From: a virus
Reading direction: 5' to 3' (one strand)
Virus genome (UHGV): UHGV-1353844
Length of the DNA stretch: 64,000 bases
The translations under genes were made by a program, and so were the position numbers. This document shows, in pieces, positions 862-27,460 of this stretch; the first letter of the stretch is position 1; each line of letters opens with the position of its first letter. The notes under the pieces are model-generated. The model was not told where the DNA came from, ran no database searches, and saw only the letters and a program-made list of their open reading frames with translations.

Positions 862-1779
862 ATGATAGACAATGTGGAATCCAGGATCTCGACGAAGTTG
901 TACGATAAACCCACTATATTGTCCGTAGTTACGACGTCTAAGTGTAACCTAGACTGTAGTTTCTGCGGTGGAGCCTACTACATGAATCGTGAAGATTCGT
1001 CTCGTGCTTTTCAACGCGAACGTATCCTGGAATTACTACAAGAGAATCCAGCTATTAAGGAAATACATTGGACGGGTGGTGAACCGCTACTCGTCCAACG
1101 TAAGATTGAGGATTTCGTTAACGAACTGAAAGTGTCTCATCCGCACCTTGAGCATCACTTGTATACCAACGGCTTAAAACTGCGTAAATCGCATCTTACG
1201 CTGCTAAAAGACTTTGAGCATGTGTTTGTATCAATTGATGGCTACAAACGTTCTGAGCGCCCTTTTATGCGCTTTATTGAAGAGGATAGCCACGAAGCAC
1301 TGGAAGCGTTATACGAACTCGATAACTTCCAAACCTGGGCTGTGATTACGCGTGACCAGTTAGCCGATAAGCGCTGGTATGAAGATATTGTGGATTTACA
1401 TCGTGCGATGTACCACTATCGTCCCCGTGCGTTTTCTCTGATGTTTGATGCCCAAATGCCAAAACCGTTGTCTCCCGATCACATCATGAACTTCGTTTAT
1501 GGTTATTTAAAGATTCAGGAGAATATGGAACGGCTGAACGTCCAAACCGGAGAATCGTGCGGCGTGTCTGTCAGCAAGATTTTCGAAAACGAGTGTAATG
1601 TCTGTAGCGAAGAGTTGTATTTGAACGCAGATGGAACAGAACATCAGCTTCAGAATGCACCGGCTATCTTAAACGGTGGGTGCAATCAGCTTGCTTGCTC
1701 TATCGGGGTAGGTGCTTACGAGTACATTAAACGCGTGATTTATGCAGAGCGTAAAAGGATAAGCAAAGATGAGCAATAA
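862..1779 (+). CDS. radical SAM enzyme with C-terminal auxiliary Cys cluster
   Basis: CNLDCSFC (CX3CX2C) near N-terminus, GGEPLL SAM-binding motif, C-terminal Cys-rich region; SD tggag upstream. Confidence 0.75.
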   Translation: MIDNVESRISTKLYDKPTILSVVTTSKCNLDCSFCGGAYYMNREDSSRAFQRERILELLQENPAIKEIHWTGGEPLLVQRKIEDFVNELKVSHPHLEHHLYTNGLKLRKSHLTLLKDFEHVFVSIDGYKRSERPFMRFIEEDSHEALEALYELDNFQTWAVITRDQLADKRWYEDIVDLHRAMYHYRPRAFSLMFDAQMPKPLSPDHIMNFVYGYLKIQENMERLNVQTGESCGVSVSKIFENECNVCSEELYLNADGTEHQLQNAPAILNGGCNQLACSIGVGAYEYIKRVIYAERKRISKDEQ

Positions 1780-3103
1780 TGAAGCACCACGTTCACAACG
1801 TACTTACCAGGTGGTAACGAACCTGTCTTGTAACTTAGACTGTGAGTATTGTTACGAACGTAAGTATCCGCGTAATAACAAAGCGGCGGATATCGTGGAT
1901 TTCTTACACGCCTGTTTTGAGCGTGATAAAGATATTCCGAACATCGACGTCATTATTGATATCATCGGCGGCGAACCTTTTATGCAACCGAAACTGCTGT
2001 TAGCGGCGTTTGAAACCGCAGAACAGTTGTGTAAGGAGCATAATCGACCGTATATGTTCAGTATCTCCACGAACGGGACGTTGTTAGACCGTCCGTTAAA
2101 CCGTGAGATCGTCGAGCGTTGGAAAGACAAACTCTCCATCGGTGTGTCTATCGACGGGCTGCCAGAAGTCCATGACCGTTATCGTATCTTTACCACGACG
2201 CGTCAGGGTTCTTACGAAGCCGCTGTTCGTGGCTATAACTACTTAAAAGAAGTGGGTATTGCTGAACTGGGTATCAAGGCAACCTTTACAACCGAAACCC
2301 TCCCGCATTACGCGGCGAGTATGAAGTCGTTAATCGATATTGCGGGTGGTGGTACGATTTCGGGTAACGTGACGTACGAAGATATCCTTCCACGGAGCAT
2401 GGCAACGGATATTGCGTTGCAGATGATCGAGGTGATGGATTATTGGATTGAGAAAGGGCTGCACACCAATCCACGTAACGTGTTGTCCCACATCATTCCT
2501 GAAGGTCTGGATTTCCGTCAGATTTGGGACCCAGATTGGCGTGATAAACTGCTGTACGACGACACGCACCGTTATAACCCTGAACGTTTACGTCCGTTCT
2601 GTGGGACGTTGACGTTTATGACTTGTTTAGGTTTTGACCGTAAGGTGTATGGTTGTAACCGATTCATGTCAACGGTAACGTCACGCTCTGCGGTGTTTGA
2701 GTTAGTCGGTCGTGAGTTTGTTAGCTTAGACGGCGGGAAACTGCTGGAAGAGATTCAGACGCAATACACCAACTATCCTGAAACGTGCTTAGGTTGTCCG
2801 ATGAAACACGGTTGTGGGAGCTGTGCAGCTGCTTCCTACGAAAACGGTGAAGGGACACTGGAAGACCGTAAGGCGTACCACGCTGAACGACGTCAATGTG
2901 GTTGGACGACCGCAAAACTGATGGCGGCAGAATACTGGCGTCAACGTACAGGCACCGTCCACGCATCGTCACTGCACGATTCGTCTGTTTGTTACTGTCC
3001 GAAATGTACGCGTGAGCGTGAGCAAGCTAAACGTGCGTTAAATGCACAACCTACTGAGGCAAATAATGAAATCAATTCTGATCCACAATTTTACGAAGCG
3101 TAA
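1769..3103 (+). CDS. radical SAM enzyme with SPASM-type C-terminal domain
   Basis: CNLDCEYC motif, GGEPF motif, C-terminal CLGCPMKHGCGSCAAAS cluster; overlaps upstream gene by 11 nt. Confidence 0.75.
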   Translation: MSNNEAPRSQRTYQVVTNLSCNLDCEYCYERKYPRNNKAADIVDFLHACFERDKDIPNIDVIIDIIGGEPFMQPKLLLAAFETAEQLCKEHNRPYMFSISTNGTLLDRPLNREIVERWKDKLSIGVSIDGLPEVHDRYRIFTTTRQGSYEAAVRGYNYLKEVGIAELGIKATFTTETLPHYAASMKSLIDIAGGGTISGNVTYEDILPRSMATDIALQMIEVMDYWIEKGLHTNPRNVLSHIIPEGLDFRQIWDPDWRDKLLYDDTHRYNPERLRPFCGTLTFMTCLGFDRKVYGCNRFMSTVTSRSAVFELVGREFVSLDGGKLLEEIQTQYTNYPETCLGCPMKHGCGSCAAASYENGEGTLEDRKAYHAERRQCGWTTAKLMAAEYWRQRTGTVHASSLHDSSVCYCPKCTREREQAKRALNAQPTEANNEINSDPQFYEA

Positions 3104-12571: not shown

Positions 12572-13066
12572 TTAGAGATGTTTTCCGATAACTTCCGAAA
12601 CTAATTCGTAAAGGTCATCGTCACTACACACATCCACACTAATTCCGATATCGATACTACGACTACGGAACCCTACTTTGAGCGATTTACCGAATTCGGT
12701 TTGGAGGGCTTTGTAGAGGATGTTCTTATCTTCTTCTGTGAGGTGTGCAGGTAGTCTAACGGTGAACTTGTAATGCTCTTTCGAAACAAGTTCGTTGGAA
12801 TAATTAAGACGATTAGCTCCACGCGTTCCGATAATCTGTGTTACCAGCTTAAACATTTCTTCATCGGTATACGCTGTTGCGCTGTAACCGATATCAATAG
12901 TGTTTCTGCGGAAACCTGCGCAGAACAAAGCACCGAACTGCTCACGGAATTCTTTGTGCAGAACATCTTTTTCTACGTCCAGTAATCCGTAACCCAAGTC
13001 AACGGTGAATTTGTATTTTTCTTTGTCAACTAATTCGTTAGTGTAATCAAGTCTAGTGAAGTTCAT
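12572..13066 (-). CDS. hypothetical protein made of two tandem ~80-aa repeats
   Basis: LDYTNELVDKEKYKFTV... and LNYSNELVSKEHYKFTV... halves. Confidence 0.6.
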   Translation of the reverse strand: MNFTRLDYTNELVDKEKYKFTVDLGYGLLDVEKDVLHKEFREQFGALFCAGFRRNTIDIGYSATAYTDEEMFKLVTQIIGTRGANRLNYSNELVSKEHYKFTVRLPAHLTEEDKNILYKALQTEFGKSLKVGFRSRSIDIGISVDVCSDDDLYELVSEVIGKHL

Positions 13067-13117
13067 GGTATATGCTCCTAAAATGGTTTTAGTTAAGTGA
13101 GAGTAGCTGAACTCTCA

Positions 13118-13137
13118 CCTAGGTAATATATATCTGA
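13118..13137 (-). promoter_or_regulatory. candidate phage promoter motif (minus orientation TCAGATATATATTACCTAGG), followed by hairpin 13097-13118
   Basis: conserved motif shared with 16737, 36985, 58107, 53194, 32332. Confidence 0.45.
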
Positions 13138-13148
13138 AATTATTTTTA

Positions 13149-13430
13149 TTAAAACCCCGCAATAAAGCTACCTAACGAAAGCCGCTGTAGGTATTTTGGC
13201 TTACGTGCCAGGTAACAGTTCTTAGGATTACCTATCGCCATCTGTGCAACCGCACGTTCTAAACGCGGTGCTTCTAAGATAGCACGATAGTTCCCTTCGT
13301 AATGCATTAACCATGCACACTCTTCAACAAAACGTTTTGCTTCTCGGTATTCTAACGTACGAATACGTTTCTTACCACGATACAAAACCACATCACCATT
13401 ACTACGAAATACAACCGTTTCACGCTTCAT
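13149..13430 (-). CDS. hypothetical protein
   Basis: 93-aa ORF. Confidence 0.5.
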   Translation of the reverse strand: MKRETVVFRSNGDVVLYRGKKRIRTLEYREAKRFVEECAWLMHYEGNYRAILEAPRLERAVAQMAIGNPKNCYLARKPKYLQRLSLGSFIAGF

Positions 13431-16756: not shown

Positions 16757-16802
16757 GAAAAAATAAAAAAGAAAGGTAGTAGGGGCTTAGCCCCTACTAC
16801 CT
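16757..16802 (-). terminator. rho-independent terminator
   Basis: ggtagtagggg-ctta-gcccctactacc hairpin preceded by A-run on plus strand. Confidence 0.65.
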
Positions 16803-16960: not shown

Positions 16961-17473
16961 TTAACCACCAAAGGTTAAGACGCGATTATCTGCGGTAACG
17001 ATTAAATCGTTGTCTTTTACTACAGCGGCTTCTTCGTCGTTACCGAAAACCAGAACGGAGAATTGGCCTTTATAACCTAACGAGTTGGGTGAAACCTGTA
17101 ACGTTACAGCGTCTTTCCCTACGGTAAATGATTCGTCGGTAAGATCGTCGGGTTGTAAATTACAACCGCAAGCCGCGTTAATTCCGTCGATTAGATCGTG
17201 TGCGGTAAAACCATTACCGGAAACCTTTACCAGAATAGGTTGCTGGTTTAACCACCGCTCTGCGGTTAAACGGTTGTAATAGATTTGTAACGTTCTGTTA
17301 CCAGGACGTTTTATCTTTACAACAGCAGTGGTGTCACGATCCATTTCGTTACTGGTCTTTACGTCGCTGACTTCAACCTCGTTCTCTTGCAGGTCGAGCT
17401 GGAGGTCATGGTTAACCAGTGAAATAACCATGTTAAGTGAAGTTAACGACAAATCAGGCGTGAATTGTTCCAC
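16961..17473 (-). CDS. paralog-family protein (PDLSLTS N-terminus, YYNRL motif); GTG start
   Basis: 170-aa ORF, SD AGGAGG 8 nt upstream of GTG; paralog of 26897-27460. Confidence 0.6.
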   Translation of the reverse strand: MEQFTPDLSLTSLNMVISLVNHDLQLDLQENEVEVSDVKTSNEMDRDTTAVVKIKRPGNRTLQIYYNRLTAERWLNQQPILVKVSGNGFTAHDLIDGINAACGCNLQPDDLTDESFTVGKDAVTLQVSPNSLGYKGQFSVLVFGNDEEAAVVKDNDLIVTADNRVLTFGG

Positions 17474-17572
17474 GTATGGTTACCTCCTATGATTGGGGAG
17501 ACATAAAATGTTGGCTAAAAACATTTCACCCCCCCCCCGATTACGTTTTCAAGCACATTCGCTTGAAAATTA

Positions 17573-18076
17573 TTAACTAATCTTCAAATCTCTTAATGTG
17601 CCGGTTGATTTCATCACGTTTTGGAAAGCAGTGCTAATGTTAGAGGTCCAGTAATAATGTTGACCATTAATAACCTGCTGATAGGCTACCGTACAAGTGT
17701 TGCCGCCTAGATTTACGGTGATGTTAGAAGCTCTCCCACCTTGTAAATAGACCGCTAAACTTGGTTTTGCATCAGCAGCCAATGTGATCAATAGTAGTTG
17801 GATACCAATAAGTGTGCCTACGCCGCAGCTACCAGGATTCTGAATAGTCCCTTTATTTTTCTGCGCTAACGGCCAGTTTGGTCCCACCGCACCCCAAAAT
17901 TTAGCCATTGAATCGCTATATGCAGCAGTTGCGATTTTACAGCCAAGAGATCGGCCCACCATTTGACTCATCATAAAAGGTCTACCCAATCCTAATTTAC
18001 TACCAGCAGCACTCATCCATTGTTCGCCCGTTTCGTTCTTGGCCGAAGAACCGACCCATCCAGATGCTACCCCCAT
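17573..18076 (-). CDS. fibre-associated protein sharing N-terminal ~45 aa with the Gly-rich protein (possible tip adhesin variant)
   Basis: GWVGSSAKNETGEQWMS N-terminus paralogous to 18137-18919. Confidence 0.55.
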   Translation of the reverse strand: MGVASGWVGSSAKNETGEQWMSAAGSKLGLGRPFMMSQMVGRSLGCKIATAAYSDSMAKFWGAVGPNWPLAQKNKGTIQNPGSCGVGTLIGIQLLLITLAADAKPSLAVYLQGGRASNITVNLGGNTCTVAYQQVINGQHYYWTSNISTAFQNVMKSTGTLRDLKIS

Positions 18077-18136: not shown

Positions 18137-18919
18137 TTAAACACGTGAACCATATATTGCACCTACTGCGTCCCATCTTGGCGCATTACCTCTAACGGCT
18201 GCACCAGCGGCTCCGCCGTTATATTCTGTACCGTTACCATGAGTATTACATCTTCCTCCAGCAGCACCGACATTACCACCCGAACCGCCTGTATATGCAC
18301 TAAGAGACCCCTCACCAACAGATCCTCTACCAGGAGCGGAAATAGTACCAGCAGCTGCACCGGAACTCATATGTGAGGAAGACCCACCAGCACCGAATGG
18401 GCGACCACCGCCACCACCAAATATTAGTCTACCCCTGTTACCGCCGCCACCGCCGCCACCGCCTCCGGCAATAGCGCCACGGTTGGTTATACGCAGTCTG
18501 TTTCCTATTCCGTTCTGTATTGCGGTTCCACCTGCACCGCCTGGTGAGTTAGAACCGCCGTTGCCTCCTCTGCCGTATACTGTAACCCCAGGATTGATGA
18601 TGAGTGTAATATACGAATTTGGAAGATTGCTAGGGAATTCTAAACAAGGAACCCCGCTACTATAAGACACTAAATCCCCTGTAATGGTCACAACGACAGC
18701 ATTAGAGCCTATAGAACGTAAATAGTTAATAAGCGTATCTTTATTGTAATTGTGATTAGCCCCGATCGAATACTGAACCTCTTTTGATTTTCCCGCCAAT
18801 TGCGACATCCAGCCTGGAACCGGCACACCAAGTGTGCGCATCGCGCCAGACATCCAATCGTTACCAGTTTCAGCTTTTGCTGAAGAACCAATCCAACCAC
18901 CTACGCCGACAACTGCCAT
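18137..18919 (-). CDS. glycine-rich protein immediately downstream of tail fibre (possible adhesin or tip protein)
   Basis: poly-Gly tracts (GGGGGGGGGN, GGGGRPFGAGG); start overlaps fibre stop (TAATG). Confidence 0.6.
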   Translation of the reverse strand: MAVVGVGGWIGSSAKAETGNDWMSGAMRTLGVPVPGWMSQLAGKSKEVQYSIGANHNYNKDTLINYLRSIGSNAVVVTITGDLVSYSSGVPCLEFPSNLPNSYITLIINPGVTVYGRGGNGGSNSPGGAGGTAIQNGIGNRLRITNRGAIAGGGGGGGGGNRGRLIFGGGGGRPFGAGGSSSHMSSGAAAGTISAPGRGSVGEGSLSAYTGGSGGNVGAAGGRCNTHGNGTEYNGGAAGAAVRGNAPRWDAVGAIYGSRV

Positions 18920-21900
18920 TAGGATCTTCCTTTAATTTCGTTAACCTCTTGACGCAACGCTTTCATACCCTCTACTAACAGCGCAATAACGCCATTGTAG
19001 TTTAGACGTAAACGTTTTTCGCCTGAAATGGCATCATCATCCTCAGACACAAGTTCAGGTAACGCTTCTAATGCGTCTTGAGCAATTAGACCTACCGAAG
19101 TGTTCCAACCGTCGTCTGGATGTTGAACCTCGTACAGATAGCCGGTAAGCGCTTCTAACCGATCCAAAGCCTTATCCAGCTTCACCAGATTACGTTTGTT
19201 GCGACGGTCAGAACGAATCTGTACGTCGTTAAACGAACCGTTACCGTTGCTAGAAATGTTATGACCAAAGGTTACTTGACCGTTAGAGTTATTAAAATAC
19301 AACGGACGTAGTCCGTTCCAGGAACCCGTTGCGGCTTGTCCGGAGTCGGTTACTAAGAAATAGGTATTGGCACCATCATTACGTAAAATGAAACCGCAGC
19401 TACCGTAAGCGATTCGGAAATCAGCATACTTCGTAACCAGTTTACCGTTAACCGTTAAATCGCCAGTGACAGTACCGCCGCTGTTCTTCAAAAACAGCGC
19501 ATCAATCCAGCCTGCAAATCCTGACTTATTGATGTATAAATTTCCATCATTTGCCAGAATGCCGCCACCCGGCGTCTTGAGAGGCTGACTCACATTTTGC
19601 AGCGTCAGCACACCATTCAATTGACCGCCAGATAATGGCAACGCCCCAACATCCGCAGCAGTTGGCTTGTTTTTCGTATTGTAAGCGCGACGCCAACCTG
19701 GTGAGTAAGCATCACCGTTATTTACGTAGATAAACTCCGCATTAGTGAGTGCGCCGCCGACGCTCGTCGTTGTGGGGGTCGTTATACGGATCGTGTAGTT
19801 GTTTGCGCTGTTACTAATCACTTCTATAACAGCCCCAGCTAACGGAATAACACCACAACCCGTCTCGCTGTTCGGTATGGACGCACTAGCAGCATAAGCC
19901 CATGCACAGCGAGCAACCCATGATTTTGTGGTAAACGCGCCGTTATTTTGCAATAACGTCACTAGCTGTGCTGTAGTTATTGCGCCGCCGTCTTTACCAG
20001 TCTCCAACCAACCAGTGGGCGAAGCCGGACAACCTATATCGGCAGGCCCTAACGATATATTTCTAGTACCGTCAAATGCGATACCGTTAATGGTACGCGC
20101 TGTCTGCAACTTTGTTGCCGTGGCTGCGTTTCCGGTAGTCGACTGATTACCCGTCTGGTTTACACCGGGCAGACTAATGTCTTGCGAACCGTCAAAGTTA
20201 ACACCGCCGATCTTACGTGCTGTTTGTAACTTAGTAGCGGTCGCTGCATTACCTGTCGTATTCTGGTTGCCTTGCTGGTTAACCCCCGGTAAATTGATAT
20301 CCCCAGTACCGTCAAAGGTAACGCCGCCGATTCTGCGAGCGGTTTTCAGTTTCGTCGCGGTAGCGGCATTGCCAGTAGTATCCTGATTACCGGTGGTATT
20401 TACACCAGGAATACTGTCACGGGCAGTATAAACTTGTGCCCAATCTGACCACGGCGCATCAGCCGTATCGCGTCGACTACGAATATAAACGGGTGCGTGT
20501 GCACCACTCGTGCCCGACCAACCAATTAACAACTCACCTTCGCCTAGCGCATTAGCACCACCTAAGTGCAGCAAGTTACCATAGGCGGTTGGATAACCGT
20601 TATTGTAAACTTCGTACATCTGGATACCAGGTGTACCCTTGTTCGACCCGGTCAGAGCGGTAACCCGTCCACGACCTACCAAGGTGTTGATATTGATGTC
20701 TCCAGAGCCATCGAATTTCACACCGTTAATATTTCTGGCGGTTTGAAGTTTAGTGGCTGTCGCGGCGTTACCTGTGGTGTTTTGATTACCTTGTTGGTTA
20801 ACACCTGGGAGGTTAACGTCGCCGCTGCCGTCGAAAGCGACCCCGCCAATTCTACGCGCAGTCTGGAGCTTAGTGGCGGTTGAAGCATTGCCGGTTAACT
20901 CACCTGCTAACCCTTTTGCAAAGGTCTGTTTCTCTGCCCAAGTGTGGGCTGCGTTCAACACAGGCATCTGTCGTGGCGTAATCGTACGGCTACCCTTCTC
21001 GCCAGCGATACGTACTGCAAAGAAGCGATAGTTAGCAGTAGACACTGTACCGCGCCAGACCAACATACTCCGACCAGTACCGGTGTCCTCTGACGCCCCT
21101 ACGAGAATACTGACCAAGTTACCGTCAATAACACCCCAATCCATTCCCGCAGGAATGTTTTTCATGGTATTCAACGGTGTACTTATCATCTGGCCAGGAA
21201 CGAAATCGAAGGTTTGCCAGTCTAACGGATCGACCTTGGCAGCAACCCCACCGATCCCTAAAGCCAACGGGAGTGAATAGGATGTGAAAATCTCTCGCCA
21301 TTCGCTCCAGGCGTTTCCTGTACGAATTCGTTGGAACTTGCGACCTTTCGTAGTTGCGCCTGTACCGTATGTGGTATAATTTTGTTCAACGCCTGAACCG
21401 TCTAAGCGTAAGGTAACTTCGCAAACACCTAACAAGGTTGCGCCAGCAGAGTCTGTTAACGGACCGTCAGTAGCCTCACCGGTAACACTAAAACGACCAG
21501 GTTTAGTTAAGTCATTAAAGCTACCCTTATAGTAGGCACCGTCTACCTGATACCCAACTTGAATCCAATCTTCCCACTGTGGATTAGACGCATCCCAAGT
21601 CGCAGTCAACCCACGGACATACATCGTACCACGACGAGTGGTGTAACGTTGCATACGTCCGTAGAGACCACCTTCCATTACTTCTAATACACCTTGAGCA
21701 TTACCACCTTCTTCGGGATAATGACGATCGAACGTCGCAAGAGAAGAACTGGAGTTACGCCACTGACCCATGTGTTCAACACCACCTAAAGTGTTAAGGT
21801 CAATAGTGGTGGAGAGCGGACGGTTCGCGGTAGTTGTCATTCTCCAGGGCGACCAAGGGCCGTTAGTACCGTTCCAGGTTCCTGTTAAACGACGAGTATA

Positions 21901-23385
21901 GACGTTACCGTTACGTATGGTAAAACGTTGGCTTCCGCTGTAGTTACCTGCTTTGAATACCTCTAAGTAACCAACTGCATCGTCTTCCGGGAAGTTCTTT
22001 GCAATTGTTGCATTCGTAGACGTGGCTTTAGACCAGACACCCATAAACGCTTCGACTGGGCCGAAGGTGTTGATATCCGCATCTACTGCCATTTCCCCAT
22101 TAAACTTCAAATACGTCTCTGCTGACAACCCGATGTTCTTCGCGAAGGTGACTTTATCTGGAATATCGGCACCGTTAGAACTGCGTTGCATAGCACCCGC
22201 AGCTTTATCAACAGTGGTTTTCAAACCCAGGAAGTTAATGATATCTGCCGTCGACCCTTTCGCTAACAAATCACGCGCAGTCGAGGTGAAATCCGCTAAC
22301 CCTACCTGATTACTACCGGTAAAGTAAGGGAGTTTGTTTGCAGCGGTGGTGACTGCGGCAATCGCTGTCAGTAACGGACTTAACGGCTGTTTACCCGCGA
22401 GTTGGTTCGTCATCGTTGTCGCAAAGTTAGGATCGTTTCCTAACGCAGCTGCAATTTCTGATAACGTATCTAACGTCTCGGGTGAAGAGTCCACTAATTC
22501 AGCAATCGCTTGCCGTACCCATGCGGTCGTTGAGACGCTCGTGTCGTTAGAATCCGAAGCAGGTGTTGGTGCTTTTACCACACCGGTAAAAGTTGGGTTG
22601 TGACGGTTTGCTTTTAACTGCAAATCTTCATTTAACTGCTTAACCGTTGACGGCGTAGCCGCTTCAGTAACAGAGTCACTGCTTAAGGTATTATTAAGTC
22701 TAACGATACCTTTACTGGTCGTTGTTGCATCAACGTTACCTTTTGCAGCGATTTCTTCTGCACGCTTAGCCGCTGCCTCAGAACGCGTTGCCGCATTCTC
22801 TGCGGTTTCTTTGTCTGTGGTAACTTGCGTTGCTGTAGCTTCTACAGCGGCTTTTGACGACTCTACCGACGCGACAGCTTCGTTAACTGCCGTAAGCGAC
22901 TGTTCGACTTGACCGGCTTGTGTGGCAACAGTTTCTGCTTTCTTCGTAACGGTAGTCACCGCTTGTGTGACGTTGGCCTCGCTTGCCGCTACCGCTTGCG
23001 CTTTCTCATTAACGGACACAACCTGGGTATCTACCGCCGTTTTCGCGGCTAACACTTCAGTGTGTTTTGTACCGACTTCAGTTGCTTTTTCGGTTACAGT
23101 TTGCGCTTGTTGAGCAACTGTAGCCGCAACGGTGTCAGTTTGTTGTTTTGCTGTTTCTGCTAAATTCTTTGCTTGTGTAGCCTGAGTTGCAGCTTCTTGT
23201 GATTGTGTTGCTGCTGTTTGTGCATCAGACACCGCATTACGTACGGTGTCAATATCTGCAACGATCTCACGGACAGGTAACTTATAATCTTTCTCATCCT
23301 TGGAAAAAAGTAAAACACCTTCACCTATATCCCCGGTGTATGGACGTAAATCGTGTAAACGAATTTTCTTTACCGCTTTAGCCAT
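18919..23385 (-). CDS. long tail fibre protein with N-terminal anchor, A/T/Q-rich coiled coil, five NTTGNAATATKLQTAR repeats and C-terminal intramolecular chaperone (S74-type autoproteolytic) domain
   Basis: 1488-aa ORF; C-terminal SDRRNKRNLVKLDKALDRLEALTGYLYE segment; repeat motif typical of phage fibre repeats. Confidence 0.85.
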   Translation of the reverse strand: MAKAVKKIRLHDLRPYTGDIGEGVLLFSKDEKDYKLPVREIVADIDTVRNAVSDAQTAATQSQEAATQATQAKNLAETAKQQTDTVAATVAQQAQTVTEKATEVGTKHTEVLAAKTAVDTQVVSVNEKAQAVAASEANVTQAVTTVTKKAETVATQAGQVEQSLTAVNEAVASVESSKAAVEATATQVTTDKETAENAATRSEAAAKRAEEIAAKGNVDATTTSKGIVRLNNTLSSDSVTEAATPSTVKQLNEDLQLKANRHNPTFTGVVKAPTPASDSNDTSVSTTAWVRQAIAELVDSSPETLDTLSEIAAALGNDPNFATTMTNQLAGKQPLSPLLTAIAAVTTAANKLPYFTGSNQVGLADFTSTARDLLAKGSTADIINFLGLKTTVDKAAGAMQRSSNGADIPDKVTFAKNIGLSAETYLKFNGEMAVDADINTFGPVEAFMGVWSKATSTNATIAKNFPEDDAVGYLEVFKAGNYSGSQRFTIRNGNVYTRRLTGTWNGTNGPWSPWRMTTTANRPLSTTIDLNTLGGVEHMGQWRNSSSSLATFDRHYPEEGGNAQGVLEVMEGGLYGRMQRYTTRRGTMYVRGLTATWDASNPQWEDWIQVGYQVDGAYYKGSFNDLTKPGRFSVTGEATDGPLTDSAGATLLGVCEVTLRLDGSGVEQNYTTYGTGATTKGRKFQRIRTGNAWSEWREIFTSYSLPLALGIGGVAAKVDPLDWQTFDFVPGQMISTPLNTMKNIPAGMDWGVIDGNLVSILVGASEDTGTGRSMLVWRGTVSTANYRFFAVRIAGEKGSRTITPRQMPVLNAAHTWAEKQTFAKGLAGELTGNASTATKLQTARRIGGVAFDGSGDVNLPGVNQQGNQNTTGNAATATKLQTARNINGVKFDGSGDININTLVGRGRVTALTGSNKGTPGIQMYEVYNNGYPTAYGNLLHLGGANALGEGELLIGWSGTSGAHAPVYIRSRRDTADAPWSDWAQVYTARDSIPGVNTTGNQDTTGNAATATKLKTARRIGGVTFDGTGDINLPGVNQQGNQNTTGNAATATKLQTARKIGGVNFDGSQDISLPGVNQTGNQSTTGNAATATKLQTARTINGIAFDGTRNISLGPADIGCPASPTGWLETGKDGGAITTAQLVTLLQNNGAFTTKSWVARCAWAYAASASIPNSETGCGVIPLAGAVIEVISNSANNYTIRITTPTTTSVGGALTNAEFIYVNNGDAYSPGWRRAYNTKNKPTAADVGALPLSGGQLNGVLTLQNVSQPLKTPGGGILANDGNLYINKSGFAGWIDALFLKNSGGTVTGDLTVNGKLVTKYADFRIAYGSCGFILRNDGANTYFLVTDSGQAATGSWNGLRPLYFNNSNGQVTFGHNISSNGNGSFNDVQIRSDRRNKRNLVKLDKALDRLEALTGYLYEVQHPDDGWNTSVGLIAQDALEALPELVSEDDDAISGEKRLRLNYNGVIALLVEGMKALRQEVNEIKGRS
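20040..20420 (-). repeat. imperfect ~120-bp tandem DNA repeats inside fibre gene encoding the GNAATATKL repeats
   Basis: three successive units ending ccgtcaaa(g)ttaacaccgccgat / ccgtcaaaggtaacgccgccgat. Confidence 0.6.
20693..20895 (-). repeat. second block of the same fibre repeat
   Basis: units gccatcgaatttcacaccgttaat / gccgtcgaaagcgaccccgccaat. Confidence 0.55.
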
Positions 23386-23419
23386 GATATTTAATTCTCT
23401 ATCGGGAGCTAAAAGATCT

Positions 23420-23453
23420 GGGGGAGGTAAAGCACCTCCCCCAACATTTTTAT
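23420..23453 (-). other. GC-rich hairpin between enzyme gene and fibre gene (attenuator or terminator)
   Basis: gggggaggt-aaagc-acctccccc. Confidence 0.4.
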
Positions 23454-23463
23454 AAGCGGGTTA

Positions 23464-26400
23464 TTATTGCTCCGGTTTTAATGGAACATCTTCTATCGTT
23501 AACGTAACGTCTAAGACCGCTTGACTGTGGTCAGTAATCGCTAAGTCACGATAAATATTAGCGTTGGGTCCGTAGGTTTTATAAGTAACGTAGAGACCTA
23601 ACGCACGTAGCACTTCTCCAGTGTAGAACCCATAAGCCATTCCGTTATCAGAAGACTCTCGAGCGGCTGGAGACCACGCTCCATTAATCGGCTTATTCGG
23701 AATTGAGGTAATCGTAAACCCTTCACCTAACTCCTTAATTGCCGCATTAACCACTTTTTCGTAGTTCGGATTCGTTGCACCGGCGAGTAATGCCCAGCAA
23801 CACCCTGCTAACCACAACCCACACATATGTGCGGTGAAGTCGTTTTCCACCCAAACAGCTTTATCCGGTGCTGTAGGGAACTCGTTAGGAGTGTGGCCGT
23901 TAAACCGATCCACAAACCCACCTAGCCAATTCACCCAGTTGTCAATATAGGTTGTTAACGCCTCGGGAACGTCTTTACCTCGCAGTTTCAGTTCGTACCA
24001 ACACCGACACGCAGCATGAAACGCGCGAGGCTGATACCCTGCCCAAGGATGGTCATCACCCCAATGGAACGTCGTCCAGGTATCCGCTTCTCCGTAGCTG
24101 TAGTTGTCCCAACGGTTCCAGATATAAGCTGCGCAACCAGGTCCTAATTCCCCAATTTGCTGTTGGTAAGCCAACTGCGAATCGTGCAGGAATTGAATCT
24201 GGTTATCTAACCACAACTTATACCGGTCGTCTTTGTGGATACTGTACATAAACGGATACTGATAACCTGGATAAGGCATCCCGTGCCAAGCACCTAACTG
24301 TTCTGAACCTTCTAAGTAGCTGTTCGTGAACGGTATCGTACCCGGACAGTACGCTAACGAATCCAATCGGTAATCTACAATCGTACAATCACCCACCTTT
24401 GCATCAAACTCTGCACCACCGCGTAAGGCAATACGGAAGGTTAAAATATAACCATCGTCTTTATTAAAGACCGGTGGGACATCGTTAACACAATAGTAAG
24501 CAAAGTGTGCATGGTCAACTGTGGAGTCAGGAAGAATCGTGACCTGATCCACCTTATCGAAATTCGGTGCTGAAGGTTTAGGGTCAGCGTCTGTGTGGTC
24601 TGGCTGATAACCGGAAAGTGTGGCTTCATCCGGATTCAACGTTACCTGACGCCATTCGTTGTTTGTGTTGGGTAACATCCACCACCAAAGCCAGTTATCA
24701 CTGTCGACTAAACGCAAGTTAAAATCTGCGTCTGCACGGTAAACAATAGAAACGGGTTTTACCTTCTCTTCAGCGGTTAACCAAAACCCGATAATAAACC
24801 CGGCACTGTCATCAGGAAATTCCGCTTCTACCACGGTACCCGCGCGACCATCGTAAATGCTATCCTCAAAACGTTCTTCCCACGTACAACCACCGTAGTC
24901 CGAACACGCACGGGCTTCAGCTATCAGGTAGTCTCCCCCTTCTGGGGTGGTAATACGGGAAAGTTGGCCTAAGTCAACATCGTACTGTTTAACGGTATTT
25001 ACCGTAGACCGAGGTAAGGTTAAACCGTACCAGTTTACCTCCTCGGTATCAGCTTTCGCAGGGTTAATGTTCACCATCACTTTACAGTAGACAGGATCGC
25101 CATTCTTACAAACTCCACCGTACGTGACACGTAGTTTAGAGTCTTTGTTAATCCTGAACCTAACCGCTTTTTGCTCCATAAAGTGCTGCGCCGCTTCAGG
25201 CACGTGGATGGTAATGTCTCCATTCTCATCACGGCCGTAGGTGGCACTTACGGTATCTGGGTAATCGAAATCGTACGAAATACCGTCAGTAAACGGTGTA
25301 TCCGCAGCGGTAGAACGACGGAAGAATTTATCTGTCGCATCAATATACGTGTACTCATGTGCGGTGTAGAAAGCACAGTCTAATGCTTGTTTGTATTTCT
25401 CTTCACCTGTGATTCGCCACAGCAAATAACAGGCGTCGATAAACCACAGTTCAGCATCAGCGGCGTTACCGTATTGGTTTTTCGACCCTAAGAACGGTGT
25501 GTGGACCGGACGGTTGTGCCACGGCTCATTACGTTTAAATTCGTAACCGCCGTGTTCGACAGGAAGTTTTACCGCGTAGTTAATTAAATAGACACCGTTT
25601 AACTGTGTGTCTTTTAACTGTACGGTACCTTTATCAGCGTCTGCTAATCCCGTCTCAATAATTTCACCATCCTGGATTTTGTTACCCGTCCAGGCAATTA
25701 TCCAGTCAACGTCGTGTTTAGGAGCTTTTGTTGCAGAGCCGCCCCAAAGCGGGGTGTAACCTGTAGTATTATTTAGCAGTGTTGGCCAATCGACCCAAGC
25801 TGTGCTTTCGTAAGGCTTATCAGGATTAGTAATAACGTGAGTTAAAACGTCTTCCCAATTAATCGACCCTTCTTTGTCTTCCTTGATAATCTGTACATCT
25901 GCGTTAATCGCGGCCCAGGCAGGGTGGCCACGATATGCAAACGTACAGATATCCAAATACTCTCCCCAGAAAGGTGCACCGTGCGGTATCTTACATTGGC
26001 CATTTGTAAACCTTACAGGAACACATTTATACCCGCCGTTGGTAGGTTCCGTAGGGTGAATAGGATAGTGTGCTAATACCGGTTCTTTCCCGTTTACTAA
26101 CCAGTTACAAATCCGACGCTGGGGTGTTGTCGGAATAGGCTGTCCGGCGTAGAAGTACGTGTTGTACGCATCCCAGGCGTGTTTCGCAGCATCTAACCAT
26201 CTTTCGTCTTTTGTTGCGATATACATGTGGCAATAACCGATAATGTGTAACGACTGACCCTCGGTCGTTGCGTCACCGTTCGGTTGGTATTCCGCCATGG
26301 TATCAGCGATGAAATGACGGTTATTCGACAGAACACCTTCTTCGTTTTGAATGTAATGATCGATATGTGCGTCGTTAGTCGTTCCCGTATTCCGGGTAAC

Positions 26401-26469
26401 GAAGGATTGGTGACCGTAAGCTAACGATAACGCGTAGCTAATCGCGTGACGCTGAAAATGTTTTCTCAT
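23464..26469 (-). CDS. large W/Y-rich enzyme-like tail protein (candidate polysaccharide-degrading depolymerase)
   Basis: 1001-aa ORF rich in Trp/Tyr/Asp; lies in-frame directly after anchor ORF, separated only by TAA. Confidence 0.65.
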   Translation of the reverse strand: MRKHFQRHAISYALSLAYGHQSFVTRNTGTTNDAHIDHYIQNEEGVLSNNRHFIADTMAEYQPNGDATTEGQSLHIIGYCHMYIATKDERWLDAAKHAWDAYNTYFYAGQPIPTTPQRRICNWLVNGKEPVLAHYPIHPTEPTNGGYKCVPVRFTNGQCKIPHGAPFWGEYLDICTFAYRGHPAWAAINADVQIIKEDKEGSINWEDVLTHVITNPDKPYESTAWVDWPTLLNNTTGYTPLWGGSATKAPKHDVDWIIAWTGNKIQDGEIIETGLADADKGTVQLKDTQLNGVYLINYAVKLPVEHGGYEFKRNEPWHNRPVHTPFLGSKNQYGNAADAELWFIDACYLLWRITGEEKYKQALDCAFYTAHEYTYIDATDKFFRRSTAADTPFTDGISYDFDYPDTVSATYGRDENGDITIHVPEAAQHFMEQKAVRFRINKDSKLRVTYGGVCKNGDPVYCKVMVNINPAKADTEEVNWYGLTLPRSTVNTVKQYDVDLGQLSRITTPEGGDYLIAEARACSDYGGCTWEERFEDSIYDGRAGTVVEAEFPDDSAGFIIGFWLTAEEKVKPVSIVYRADADFNLRLVDSDNWLWWWMLPNTNNEWRQVTLNPDEATLSGYQPDHTDADPKPSAPNFDKVDQVTILPDSTVDHAHFAYYCVNDVPPVFNKDDGYILTFRIALRGGAEFDAKVGDCTIVDYRLDSLAYCPGTIPFTNSYLEGSEQLGAWHGMPYPGYQYPFMYSIHKDDRYKLWLDNQIQFLHDSQLAYQQQIGELGPGCAAYIWNRWDNYSYGEADTWTTFHWGDDHPWAGYQPRAFHAACRCWYELKLRGKDVPEALTTYIDNWVNWLGGFVDRFNGHTPNEFPTAPDKAVWVENDFTAHMCGLWLAGCCWALLAGATNPNYEKVVNAAIKELGEGFTITSIPNKPINGAWSPAARESSDNGMAYGFYTGEVLRALGLYVTYKTYGPNANIYRDLAITDHSQAVLDVTLTIEDVPLKPEQ

Positions 26470-26931
26470 TTAGTAACCCGCTGCAAGAAGAGAACCTTTC
26501 CAAGTGGCACCCCCGTCAAGGGTATAAAGCGACAGAGTGTCTTCCGCATTTGCCGTGTAGGATAAAACCGGTTTTGCACCGTGAGGCCACTTAACGTTTT
26601 CAGGCCAGGTTACTTTATTCGCCCCTGTTCCCTGCTTAAACGTTAGCATTACTTCGAAACGGGTATTTTCCGCAACGTTAGTAAGGGCTGCGAACGTCAC
26701 CGTAGTAGTGGGATCGTTTAACACCAGAATAATGTCAGTGCTGGTATTGAAATCCAACGTGGCGGCATTATTCGAACCGTTAACCGTGGTGACTGTCGCA
26801 ACCGGGGCTAACTTATCAACATCAATTTTATATTCTTTATTGTCTTTGCTATACAGCAGTACCCCGCCCTGCGGTGTGCCTGCGTAGCTTTCGAGCTCAT
26901 GGAGTCTCGTCTTCTTCAGTGCTGTCGCCAT
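26470..26931 (-). CDS. tail-fibre N-terminal anchor-domain protein
   Basis: MATALKKTRLHELESYAGTPQGGVLLYSKDNKEYK aligns with fibre N-terminus MAKAVKKIRLHDLRPYTGDIGEGVLLFSKDEKDYK; ATG at 26931 with SD GAGG. Confidence 0.6.
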   Translation of the reverse strand: MATALKKTRLHELESYAGTPQGGVLLYSKDNKEYKIDVDKLAPVATVTTVNGSNNAATLDFNTSTDIILVLNDPTTTVTFAALTNVAENTRFEVMLTFKQGTGANKVTWPENVKWPHGAKPVLSYTANAEDTLSLYTLDGGATWKGSLLAAGY

Positions 26932-27460
26932 CTGTAACCTCGAATGTAAGAACGGCATTGTCACCAATACAGAAGATTGCATCTTCTTCGTTTGCTAATG
27001 CCCGTTCGGTTGTATCAAACAACGTCACCATAAACGCGTTCATCCACGCAGGAGAATCGTCGGCAACGTTAACGGAAATGGGATCGTTACCTAAAGTGAT
27101 ATCTGAAGCACGTAAATCCTCGGGTTGTAAGTTCGTTCCGCAGAATTCATTTACAACACTAAGAATGTCACGAACGTTGTCTTCAGTACCGTCTAACGAA
27201 ATCAGAATGGGTTCATACGTTAATACTTCATCTGCGTCGAGTCTGTCGTAATAAACCACAACAGACGCACCATCTGGTTTTCTGATTTTACTGATTTCGG
27301 TAATGGTGTTACGACGCGAAGTTGTTGGAGATGAGTTTGTTACGGTCCCGCTAATACGTATTTCGTTTAGCGTAAGCTGTAACCCATTATCGTGATTGAT
27401 TAAAGCGACCACTAGCTCTGCTGAGGTCAGACTCAAATCAGGTACGTATGGTGTGGCCAC
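26897..27460 (-). CDS. paralog-family protein (PDLSLTS, VYYDRL); GTG start
   Basis: 187-aa ORF; paralog of 16961-17473. Confidence 0.6.
   Translation of the reverse strand: MATPYVPDLSLTSAELVVALINHDNGLQLTLNEIRISGTVTNSSPTTSRRNTITEISKIRKPDGASVVVYYDRLDADEVLTYEPILISLDGTEDNVRDILSVVNEFCGTNLQPEDLRASDITLGNDPISVNVADDSPAWMNAFMVTLFDTTERALANEEDAIFCIGDNAVLTFEVTDGDSTEEDETP

Follow-up and report, generated by a model that had tools for sequence, protein, structure and literature searches.

A long tail fibre with a C-terminal chaperone domain, followed by two gp38-type adhesin genes, in a phiKZ/SPN3US-like phage genome

Results

A chaperone-bearing fibre with gp38-type adhesins encoded next to it

We analysed a 64,000-nucleotide stretch of the UHGV virus genome UHGV-1353844, referred to here as the window, and in particular the long tail fibre gene that occupies positions 18919–23385 of its minus strand. 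Our analysis indicates that the 1488-residue product of this gene is, with good probability, the shaft of a long tail fibre that carries a self-cleaved chaperone at its C-terminus and whose tip is then capped by a gp38-type adhesin encoded downstream. An earlier interpretation of this DNA, made from the letters and open reading frames alone (the sequence-only reading), had identified the same open reading frame, which we recovered as a single frame, and had described it as a fibre with an N-terminal anchor, a coiled coil, tandem repeats and a C-terminal chaperone. That interpretation is correct in what it covers but incomplete, as it stopped at the stop codon and missed two genes encoding proteins with the Gp38_N domain. 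The presence of gp38 adhesins downstream changes the functional reading of the locus: the fibre is probably not the receptor-binding element. The coordinates of all features are collected in Table 1.

The C-terminal chaperone and the fibre tip

The C-terminus of the fibre belongs to the chaperone family of endosialidases and T5 fibres, as had been proposed. Pfam Peptidase_S74 (PF13884) matched residues 1392–1446 with 41.5 bits against a cut-off of 22, covering profile positions 1–57 of 58; the C-terminal segment scanned alone scored 44.5 bits, and the SDRRNKRNLVKLDKALDRLEALTGYLYE sequence quoted in the sequence-only reading is present. The predicted catalytic dyad, Ser1392 and Lys1397, lies within the motif NDVQIR^SDRRNK (the caret marks the predicted cleavage site), with the lysine five residues past the serine (S-D-x-x-x-K).

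The last ~125 residues of the fibre (~1364–1486) aligned with the gp37 chain of phage S16 (PDB 6f45_A, E-value 8e-13). The cleavage sites were in register in this alignment, ...SFNDVQIR-SDRRNKRN of the fibre falling on ...IYCRDLNVS-SDRRIKKD of S16 gp37. In the S16 protein, trimerisation is followed by autocleavage between the serines of DLNVS^SDRRIKK, which releases a 113-residue chaperone and exposes the docking surface for gp38 (PMC7917993). At the equivalent site the fPS phages carry DVYIR^SD, their gp38 docking strand (PMC7917993), and the DVQIR^SD of the window fibre resembles it. Among 120 homologues of the fibre, the 22-residue motif spanning tip and cleavage site was identical in 106, and its serine, aspartate and lysine were invariant in all 120. 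We interpret the tip as one of the T2/S16 gp37 type, in which a short beta-strand would immediately precede the cleavage site.

Two downstream genes encode Gp38_N adhesins

The stop codon of the fibre gene overlaps the start codon of the next gene (TAATG). Its 260-residue product was matched by Pfam GP38 (3e-69, 234 bits) and Gp38_N (1.5e-15, 57 bits) and aligned over its whole length with S16 gp38 (6f45_D, E-value 3e-50), with W9, W22 and W37 placed on tryptophans of the S16 protein. At the nucleotide level the gene is 77–89% identical to gp38 of T-even-like Straboviridae of E. coli (JSE, RB49, Phi1, PaulHMueller), and matches in the same range include a phage-plasmid-sized record. Inside this gene, the plus strand holds a perfect (ACCGCCGCC)x2.7 / CCG tract at 18440–18467, which encodes the poly-glycine run GGGGGGGGG; in phage vB_Eco_TB34 this same tract carries a repeat-region annotation.

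Sixty bases past gp38 starts the gene for a second, smaller adhesin, which was recognised by Pfam Gp38_N (3.8e-20) and by phrog_1121, “tail fiber adhesin” (8e-46). Its 27 invariant columns lie nearly all in the N-terminal 41 residues, that is, in Gp38_N. AlphaFold2, supplied with a 14-sequence alignment, modelled residues 45–167 as a beta-sandwich with a predicted local distance difference test score (pLDDT) of 85–95 (~90). A Foldseek search of this model against the PDB identified no solved relative (best E-value 0.046, template modelling score 0.26), and we regard its matches to TcpF and TEAD as noise. The model did match predicted gp38-class proteins of the Proteus T4-like phages phiP4-3 and PM2, together with uncharacterised phage proteins.

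The tandem arrangement of Gp38_N genes is not without precedent, as Serratia phage CBH8 carries an annotated gp38.1/gp38 pair. A first tblastn search returned 432 places in 432 records, and a query limited to the N-terminal domain returned 871 places in 852 phage records; tandem Gp38_N genes are thus rare in sequenced phages, but not new.

Chaperone-bearing fibres without a terminal binding domain have been suggested to rely on a separately encoded adhesin that is missed when single polypeptides are analysed (bioRxiv 10.64898/2026.05.12.724579). By homology, the adhesins rather than the fibre most likely contact the host receptor once the chaperone has been released. This receptor is probably an outer-membrane protein; classical gp38 proteins use a porin such as Tsx, FadL, OmpA, OmpF or OmpW (bioRxiv 10.64898/2026.04.02.716166).

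Several points weigh against this interpretation. Trimerisation, autocleavage, chaperone release, adhesin docking and the receptor class are all features that we infer from homology, cleavage and docking included. A single-sequence AlphaFold2 monomer of residues 1250–1488 reached a mean pLDDT of 38 and was unusable. No other chaperone-bearing fibre was found by Pfam in ten other open reading frames of the window, the largest included, in a search confined to this window of 64 kilobases (kb) in a ~220-kb genome. In the small adhesin, the third conserved gp38 tryptophan is replaced by methionine (PFMMS versus PGWMS), and its N-terminal docking domain was modelled by AlphaFold2 at low confidence; both make docking of this protein to the NDVQIR tip less certain.

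Alternative readings of receptor binding

The small adhesin is also central to an alternative that we consider rather unlikely, in which only one adhesin is used on the fibre. The large gp38 would then have functionally replaced an ancestral small adhesin, which would now be a decaying remnant or be attached elsewhere. The loss of the third tryptophan fits this scenario, as does the divergence of the small adhesin of the window, which is only ~60–63% identical to those of relatives carrying the small adhesin alone and so hints at relaxed or diversifying selection. Also, the 6f45 structure contains three gp37 chains and one gp38 chain, so that two adhesins would compete for a single site. Against a remnant stands the small adhesin frame itself, intact in all dual-adhesin loci examined in which the contig reaches it (the window and the relatives L004 and L010), with a strongly conserved Gp38_N and a confidently folded C-terminal domain. 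Both genes, moreover, appear to be kept in ~84 of 120 homologues, as judged by a C-terminal signature of the fibre that serves as a proxy checked on 7 loci, and the gp38.1/gp38 tandem likewise persists in CBH8.

T5-type chaperone-bearing fibres bind receptors directly. The window fibre could by analogy be the receptor-binding protein itself, in the manner of T5 pb1 or endosialidase and as the sequence-only reading implied, with its distal Mu S-like and gp34-like domains binding the receptor once the chaperone is gone and the gp38-like genes acting as assembly factors or serving another fibre. Its internal Mu S/S'-like domain (8ju3, E-value 8e-31) does resemble a receptor-binding region of Mu fibres, and older annotations label gp38 an “assembly catalyst”. 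We nonetheless find this reading improbable: the Mu-like domain is not terminal but lies ~145 residues upstream of the tip; the last ~50 residues before the cleavage site, together with the chaperone, align to S16 gp37, which has no receptor-binding domain of its own (bioRxiv 10.64898/2026.05.12.724579); the 260-residue protein represents the T2/S16-type adhesin at full length, glycine-rich motifs included, and not a T4-type chaperone gp38; and its gene overlaps the fibre gene at TAATG.

Architecture of the fibre shaft

The N-terminal anchor recognised in the sequence-only reading proved to be specific to the SPN3US-like lineage. Residues ~1–45 are 49% identical to the N-terminus of the window's own 153-residue fibre protein, encoded 3.5 kb upstream, and the fibre N-terminus shares ~52% identity over 50 residues with the N-termini of SPN3US gp143, annotated “tail fiber protein”, and its homologue in Erwinia phage Asesino. 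The coiled coil likewise held up. The 172 residues from 45 to 216 are rich in A, T, V, Q and E, contain 0 prolines and 3 glycines, and show a hydrophobic periodicity of 3.5 residues with a power of 4.84, compared with 1.26 +/- 0.29 for the maxima of shuffled sequences; this region is predicted to form a canonical heptad coiled coil. NCBIfam gave only sub-threshold SMC/Rad50 coiled-coil matches to the fibre, weak and compositional, which we treat as noise, and no match for five neighbouring proteins or for the 40-residue units described below.

The fibre matched 61 PHROG tail-fibre families, the best being phrog_6722 (5e-261). Tblastn matches to P1 S, P2 H and Goslar fibres reached 50–58% amino acid identity over residues ~245–1382, each covering 44–58% of the fibre query. 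We read residues 245–1382 as a mosaic shaft of P1/P2/Mu-type modules. Within the region similar to P2 H, two tandem domains (residues 429–514 and 521–607) are 41% identical to each other (internal BLAST, E-value 3e-16). Nearer the tip, residues 1279–1383 were matched by Pfam Gp34_trimer (2e-16) and by PDB entries 5yvq, 4uxe and 5nxf at E-values of 1e-14 to 2e-16.

When compared by Megablast with 50,697 phage records, the fibre gene gave zero matches, so it is not close at the DNA level to that of any sequenced phage isolate, and an exact-sequence look-up of the fibre found none on record. Homologues at 80–96% identity number 120 or more.

Diverged 40-residue repeats vary in number among relatives

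The motif G-N-A-[AS]-T-A-T-K-L-[QK]-T-A-R (the GNAATATKLQTAR repeats) occurs five times in the fibre, with starts at residues 832, 872, 1005, 1045 and 1085. The five copies previously described were thus all present, but their period is exactly 40 residues within blocks rather than ~38, and they do not form one tandem array: copies 2 and 3 are spaced 133 residues apart instead of 40, giving a 2+3 arrangement around an inserted domain of 93 residues whose spacing is conserved in all relatives examined. Self-BLAST of a segment against the rest of the protein gave E-values between copies down to 5e-32, far beyond chance.

The suggestion that these units are encoded by ~120-bp imperfect tandem DNA repeats overstates the nucleotide sequence. 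The 120-nt units are 47–71% identical to one another, the longest exact run is 12 nt, and neither Tandem Repeats Finder nor a direct-repeat finder detected them in the fibre gene. They are best seen as old, strongly diverged paralogous protein repeats and not as near-identical tandem copies of DNA. PF03406, which had been offered as the repeat family, did not match residues 820–1125 even at an E-value limit of 10; some homologues carry precomputed PF03406 flags for which no position is given. The sole contact of this profile with the fibre is partial and falls on a different motif, at residues ~240–258 (E-value 0.033, 14.2 bits against a cut-off of 22). Judged from the PHROG tail-fibre families that match several stretches of the protein, the 40-residue repeat type appears to be shared with P1, P2, Mu and Goslar fibres.

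The idea that the repeats serve as substrates for copy-number change, in contrast, is borne out by comparison among relatives in spite of the low DNA identity. In the 120 homologues (80–96% identity), block 1 always has two units, whereas block 2 has 2, 3 or 4 in exact 40-residue register between identical flanks, so that the total arrangements are 2+2, 2+3 and 2+4. Across genomes, orthologous units are 82–100% identical at the nucleotide level compared with 47–71% between paralogous units, which indicates that the six-unit form, with units 3, 4, 5 and 6 in block 2, is old. Relative to this form the window has units 3, 4 and 6. Block 2 of L004 consists of unit 3, a hybrid of unit 4 at its beginning and unit 5 at its end, and unit 6; that of L003 consists of a hybrid that follows unit 3 of the window for ~106 nt with one mismatch and continues as the end of unit 5, and then unit 6. 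The 4/5 and 3/5 hybrids appear to be signatures of in-register recombination between units, and whether a given change was a loss or a gain is something that sequence comparison can only suggest. We propose that the repeat blocks act as length modules of the shaft.

It is doubtful that the differences in repeat number reflect wholesale module swapping with fibres of other phages, or errors of short-read assembly, rather than recombination between repeats. Phage fibres are notoriously mosaic, most of the relatives are short-read assemblies (Logan/ENA), and exact matches between paralogous units, ~12 nt at most, are a poor substrate for RecA-type recombination; yet every variant keeps the exact 40-residue register and identical flanks, units only 47–71% identical would not collapse in assembly, the switch points of the L003 and L004 hybrids lie inside repeats, and several different lengths recur in many independent samples.

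The cassette, its neighbours and its relatives

The fibre gene, the adhesin genes and a gene for a DUF7941 virion structural protein form a cassette, for which the locus of SPN3US provides a comparison. At the syntenic position SPN3US has only DUF7941, gp143 and gp142, so the fibre–adhesin(s)–DUF7941 cassette is an addition to a conserved SPN3US-type locus. Strong terminator-like hairpins flank the cassette (Table 1). Its guanine-plus-cytosine content is 46–52%, compared with 38–44% for the genes flanking the receptor-binding cluster.

Relatives differ in which adhesins they carry. In L002, L003 and L009 the fibre is followed by the small adhesin alone, whereas in L004, L005, L010 and the window the large gp38 lies between the two (L005 ends just past gp38). 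The tip before the cleavage site is nearly the same with or without the large gp38, and only the last ~15 fibre codons differ, the C-terminus reading ...EIKGRS where gp38 is present and ...ELKELKEK/GK where it is absent. Divergence confined to these codons marks the junction of the gp38 insertion. From this pattern we propose that the large gp38 may have been inserted later, between the fibre and an older small adhesin. L009 (1–9428, NCBI GCA_043852965.1), compared with window positions 23464–27460, also lacks the 153-residue and 1001-residue pair upstream, its long fibre gene following directly after a DUF7941 gene, so that the plasticity of the receptor-binding locus extends to whole genes.

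Two DUF7941 paralogues on the minus strand (16961–17473 and 26897–27460) bracket the receptor-binding cluster of the window, and in relatives additional DUF7941 genes lie downstream (L004 at 23198–24467, for example). The genes for the small adhesin and the DUF7941 protein are separated by a spacer of ~100 nt that contains a G10 run on the minus strand (17529–17538; C10 if read on the plus strand), possibly a slippage-prone homopolymer or a hotspot of sequencing error. The 153-residue small fibre protein was listed as a 170-residue frame (26470–26982), with the start probably at Met18 (26931). Next to it, a 1001-residue “tail protein” (23464–26469, minus strand) matched phrog_2871 (E-value 0) over positions 116–1060 of its 1456-position profile and had a weak, sub-threshold match to the GH76 glycosyl-hydrolase family (E-value 0.002). 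The gene for the 153-residue protein precedes it without a gap, and the two proteins may act as a two-piece tailspike.

Pfam identified a phiKZ-type major capsid protein (PhiKZ_MCP, 9e-208) and phiKZ_IP internal head proteins in the window, which is ~73% identical at the nucleotide level to Salmonella phages like SPN3US and Erwinia phages like Asesino. Many fibre homologues, near-identical ones included, lie on ~220–225-kb contigs in assemblies of Salmonella enterica isolates from many serovars (Enteritidis, Chester, Javiana, Kentucky and others). This profile fits membership of the Chimalliviridae and of the “Seoul-like” phiKZ/SPN3US-type jumbo phages, which have been reported to persist in Salmonella isolates in a study that does not mention their tail fibres (bioRxiv 10.1101/2024.12.31.630880).

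Elsewhere in the window, a 36–55-nt intergenic element (13096–13150) lies upstream of the minus-strand frame 12572..13066. It is 95–100% identical in matching SPN3US-like jumbo phages of Salmonella, Escherichia, Proteus and Erwinia, compared with ~73% for the surrounding genome, occurs in 3–4 copies in some genomes, mostly in unannotated intergenic DNA, and contains a GTGAGAG...CTCTCAC hairpin beside an AT-rich TATATAT stretch. This element could serve as a conserved promoter or terminator, or have a small regulatory role. Megablast matches of at least 99% identity, considered as a possible mobile element near the fibre, proved to be this element and are unrelated to the fibre. Two adjacent radical-SAM genes (862–3103, plus strand) are conserved with SPN3US-like phages at ~73% nucleotide identity, and a scan of the window for tRNA genes found none.

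Table 1. Positions of the fibre gene, its domains and the surrounding features in the window, with the basis of each assignment.
Feature	Position	Strand	Basis
Terminator-like hairpin, 13-bp stem then T-run, downstream of cassette	16774..16802	-	
DUF7941 virion structural protein, last cassette gene, paralogue of 26897..27460	16961..17473	-	Pfam DUF7941 1e-16, phrog_2935
Small second adhesin, 167 aa: Gp38_N and a different beta-sandwich C-terminal domain	17573..18076	-	Pfam, PHROG, AlphaFold2
gp38 adhesin, 260 aa (Gp38_N and glycine-rich GP38 domain)	18137..18919	-	Pfam, PDB 6f45_D
Long tail fibre gene, 1488 aa	18919..23385	-	Single frame in the list of open reading frames
Intramolecular chaperone domain, aa 1392-1488 (97 aa), predicted released	18922..19212	-	Pfam Peptidase_S74 1.6e-10, PDB 6f45_A
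Ser1392 codon, predicted autocleavage nucleophile (R1391^S1392; partner Lys1397)	19210..19212	-	PF13884 profile position 1 and S16 gp37 alignment
T4 gp34 / Mu S-type trimerisation domain, aa 1279-1383	19237..19551	-	Pfam and PDB
Mu S/S'-like domain, aa 1123-1248	19642..20019	-	PDB 8ju3 chain A, domain E-value 8e-31
Repeat block 2, three 40-aa units, aa 1002-1121, copy number varies among relatives	20023..20382	-	Motif scan and homologue comparison
Inserted 93-aa domain between blocks, aa 909-1001	20383..20661	-	Spacing of copies 2 and 3
Repeat block 1, two 40-aa GNA[AS]TATKLQTAR units, aa 829-908	20662..20901	-	Motif scan and self-BLAST
Two tandem ~90-aa domains, aa 429-514 and 521-607	21565..22101	-	Internal BLAST, inside P2 H-like region
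Collar-type motif (SKGIVRL...AATPSTVKQL), aa ~222-258	22612..22722	-	Sub-threshold PF03406
Heptad coiled coil (predicted), aa 45-216	22738..23253	-	Composition and hydrophobic periodicity
N-terminal anchor, aa 1-45, specific to SPN3US-like lineage	23251..23385	-	Sequence identity to two small fibre proteins
Terminator-like GC-rich hairpin, 12-bp stem, between upstream tail protein and fibre gene	23418..23444	-	
153-aa small fibre protein with paralogous anchor, SPN3US gp143 orthologue	26470..26931	-	Open reading frame list, phrog_9017, identity

Discussion

A model for assembly of the fibre

The open reading frame, its domains and motifs, the gene order, the copy-number variation and the hybrid units observed here can be combined into a model of how this fibre might be assembled. 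Three chains would attach to the baseplate via the lineage-specific anchor of ~45 residues and continue as a trimeric coiled coil of ~170 residues, followed by the mosaic P1/P2/Mu-type shaft with the two repeat blocks as length modules. The C-terminal 97 residues would nucleate trimerisation of the distal gp34/gp37-like domain, after which the chaperone would cut itself off between Arg1391 and Ser1392 by means of the Ser1392/Lys1397 dyad. Cleavage would expose a flat tip ending in ...NDVQIR, on which one gp38-type adhesin monomer would dock through its N-terminal Gp38_N domain, as in T2 and S16. The docked adhesin, either the classical glycine-rich gp38 or the 167-residue beta-sandwich protein, would then bind the receptor, and in-register gain or loss of 40-residue units would tune the length of the fibre.

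The two adhesins of the window look interchangeable, and this allows a bolder scenario, which we offer tentatively and consider less likely than not. One shaft would be capped alternatively by an imported T-even-type gp38 and by the older beta-sandwich adhesin; these unrelated heads would give mixed tips on each virion and access to two different outer-membrane receptors or hosts, with loss or gain of 40-residue units adjusting the reach. If true, mixed tips would amount to a natural two-tips-on-one-shaft device for host range in a persistent, nucleus-forming phiKZ-like phage.

All of the modules identified here have been described before, from the intramolecular chaperone and the gp37/gp38 tip to the shaft modules of P1/P2/Mu type, as have mosaicism, variation in repeat length and the logic of assembly. 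What is new is their combination in a phiKZ-like jumbo phage, a modest addition that does not overturn current understanding. In our view the most interesting loose end is the presence, beside a classical gp38, of another Gp38_N adhesin whose fold has no solved relative. For annotation and host-range prediction, the locus suggests that a C-terminal chaperone on a fibre signals that the determinant of specificity may sit in the next gene or genes. The cassette gave the whole clade an extra, highly plastic receptor-binding arm, and the 2+2, 2+3 and 2+4 variants constitute a natural series for the effect of shaft length on adsorption.

Comparison with known systems

The closest parallel at the tip is the gp37–gp38 system of S16 and T2 (PDB 6f45), which shares with the window an alignable C-terminal region of ~145 residues, the register of the cleavage sites, a full-length gp38 in the next gene and the gene order. 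The window phage differs in being a phiKZ/SPN3US-like jumbo phage and not a member of the Straboviridae, and its fibre is not the four-protein gp34–gp37 long tail fibre of that family: one 1488-residue chain runs from the baseplate anchor to the tip, with SPN3US-type neighbours and no adjoining gp34, gp35 or gp36 genes. Its shaft is built from P1/P2/Mu-type modules, and a second, structurally different Gp38_N adhesin follows gp38.

Two tandem Gp38_N genes directly after the distal fibre gene are also found in the Serratia phages CBH8 and CHI14 (Winklervirus), in the order gp37–gp38.1–gp38. These phages are T4-like, however, and both of their adhesins are short (~170 residues), neither being a glycine-rich full-length gp38. 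The Stx phage P13771 (Oslovirus) and the phage-plasmid-sized E. coli record CMS-2020a each encode, directly after a long fibre gene, an adhesin that is 58–62% identical over its full length to the small adhesin. The first is a podovirus-type phage, the second a circular element of ~109 kb, and in each the adhesin, of 170 residues, is the only one.

The shaft resembles P1 S, P2 H, Mu S/S' and the Goslar “tail fiber repeat protein”, with which it shares homology along its length and, in the case of Mu, the S-like domain. The side tail fibres of P1, P2 and Mu have their own terminal receptor-binding domain and a separate chaperone of the Tfa/U type. The window fibre instead has a C-terminal autoproteolytic chaperone domain (PF13884) and gp38-type adhesins; no Tfa-like gene was seen downstream of the fibre, where Pfam assigned the genes to GP38/Gp38_N and DUF7941. 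Like endosialidases and T5 pb1, it has a domain of this family at the C-terminus, with the Ser...Lys(+5) dyad, but in those proteins the matured C-terminus is itself enzymatic or receptor-binding, whereas that of the window fibre is most likely a docking platform.

Finally, the syntenic locus of SPN3US lacks a long fibre, a chaperone domain and gp38, yet SPN3US gp143 (156 residues) shares the anchor with the window fibre, and gp143 and gp142 (a tail protein of 1005 residues) are syntenic with the neighbouring genes. Compared in this way, the window locus shows a conserved baseplate anchor fused to what appears to be a borrowed P1/P2/Mu-type shaft and a T-even-type tip.

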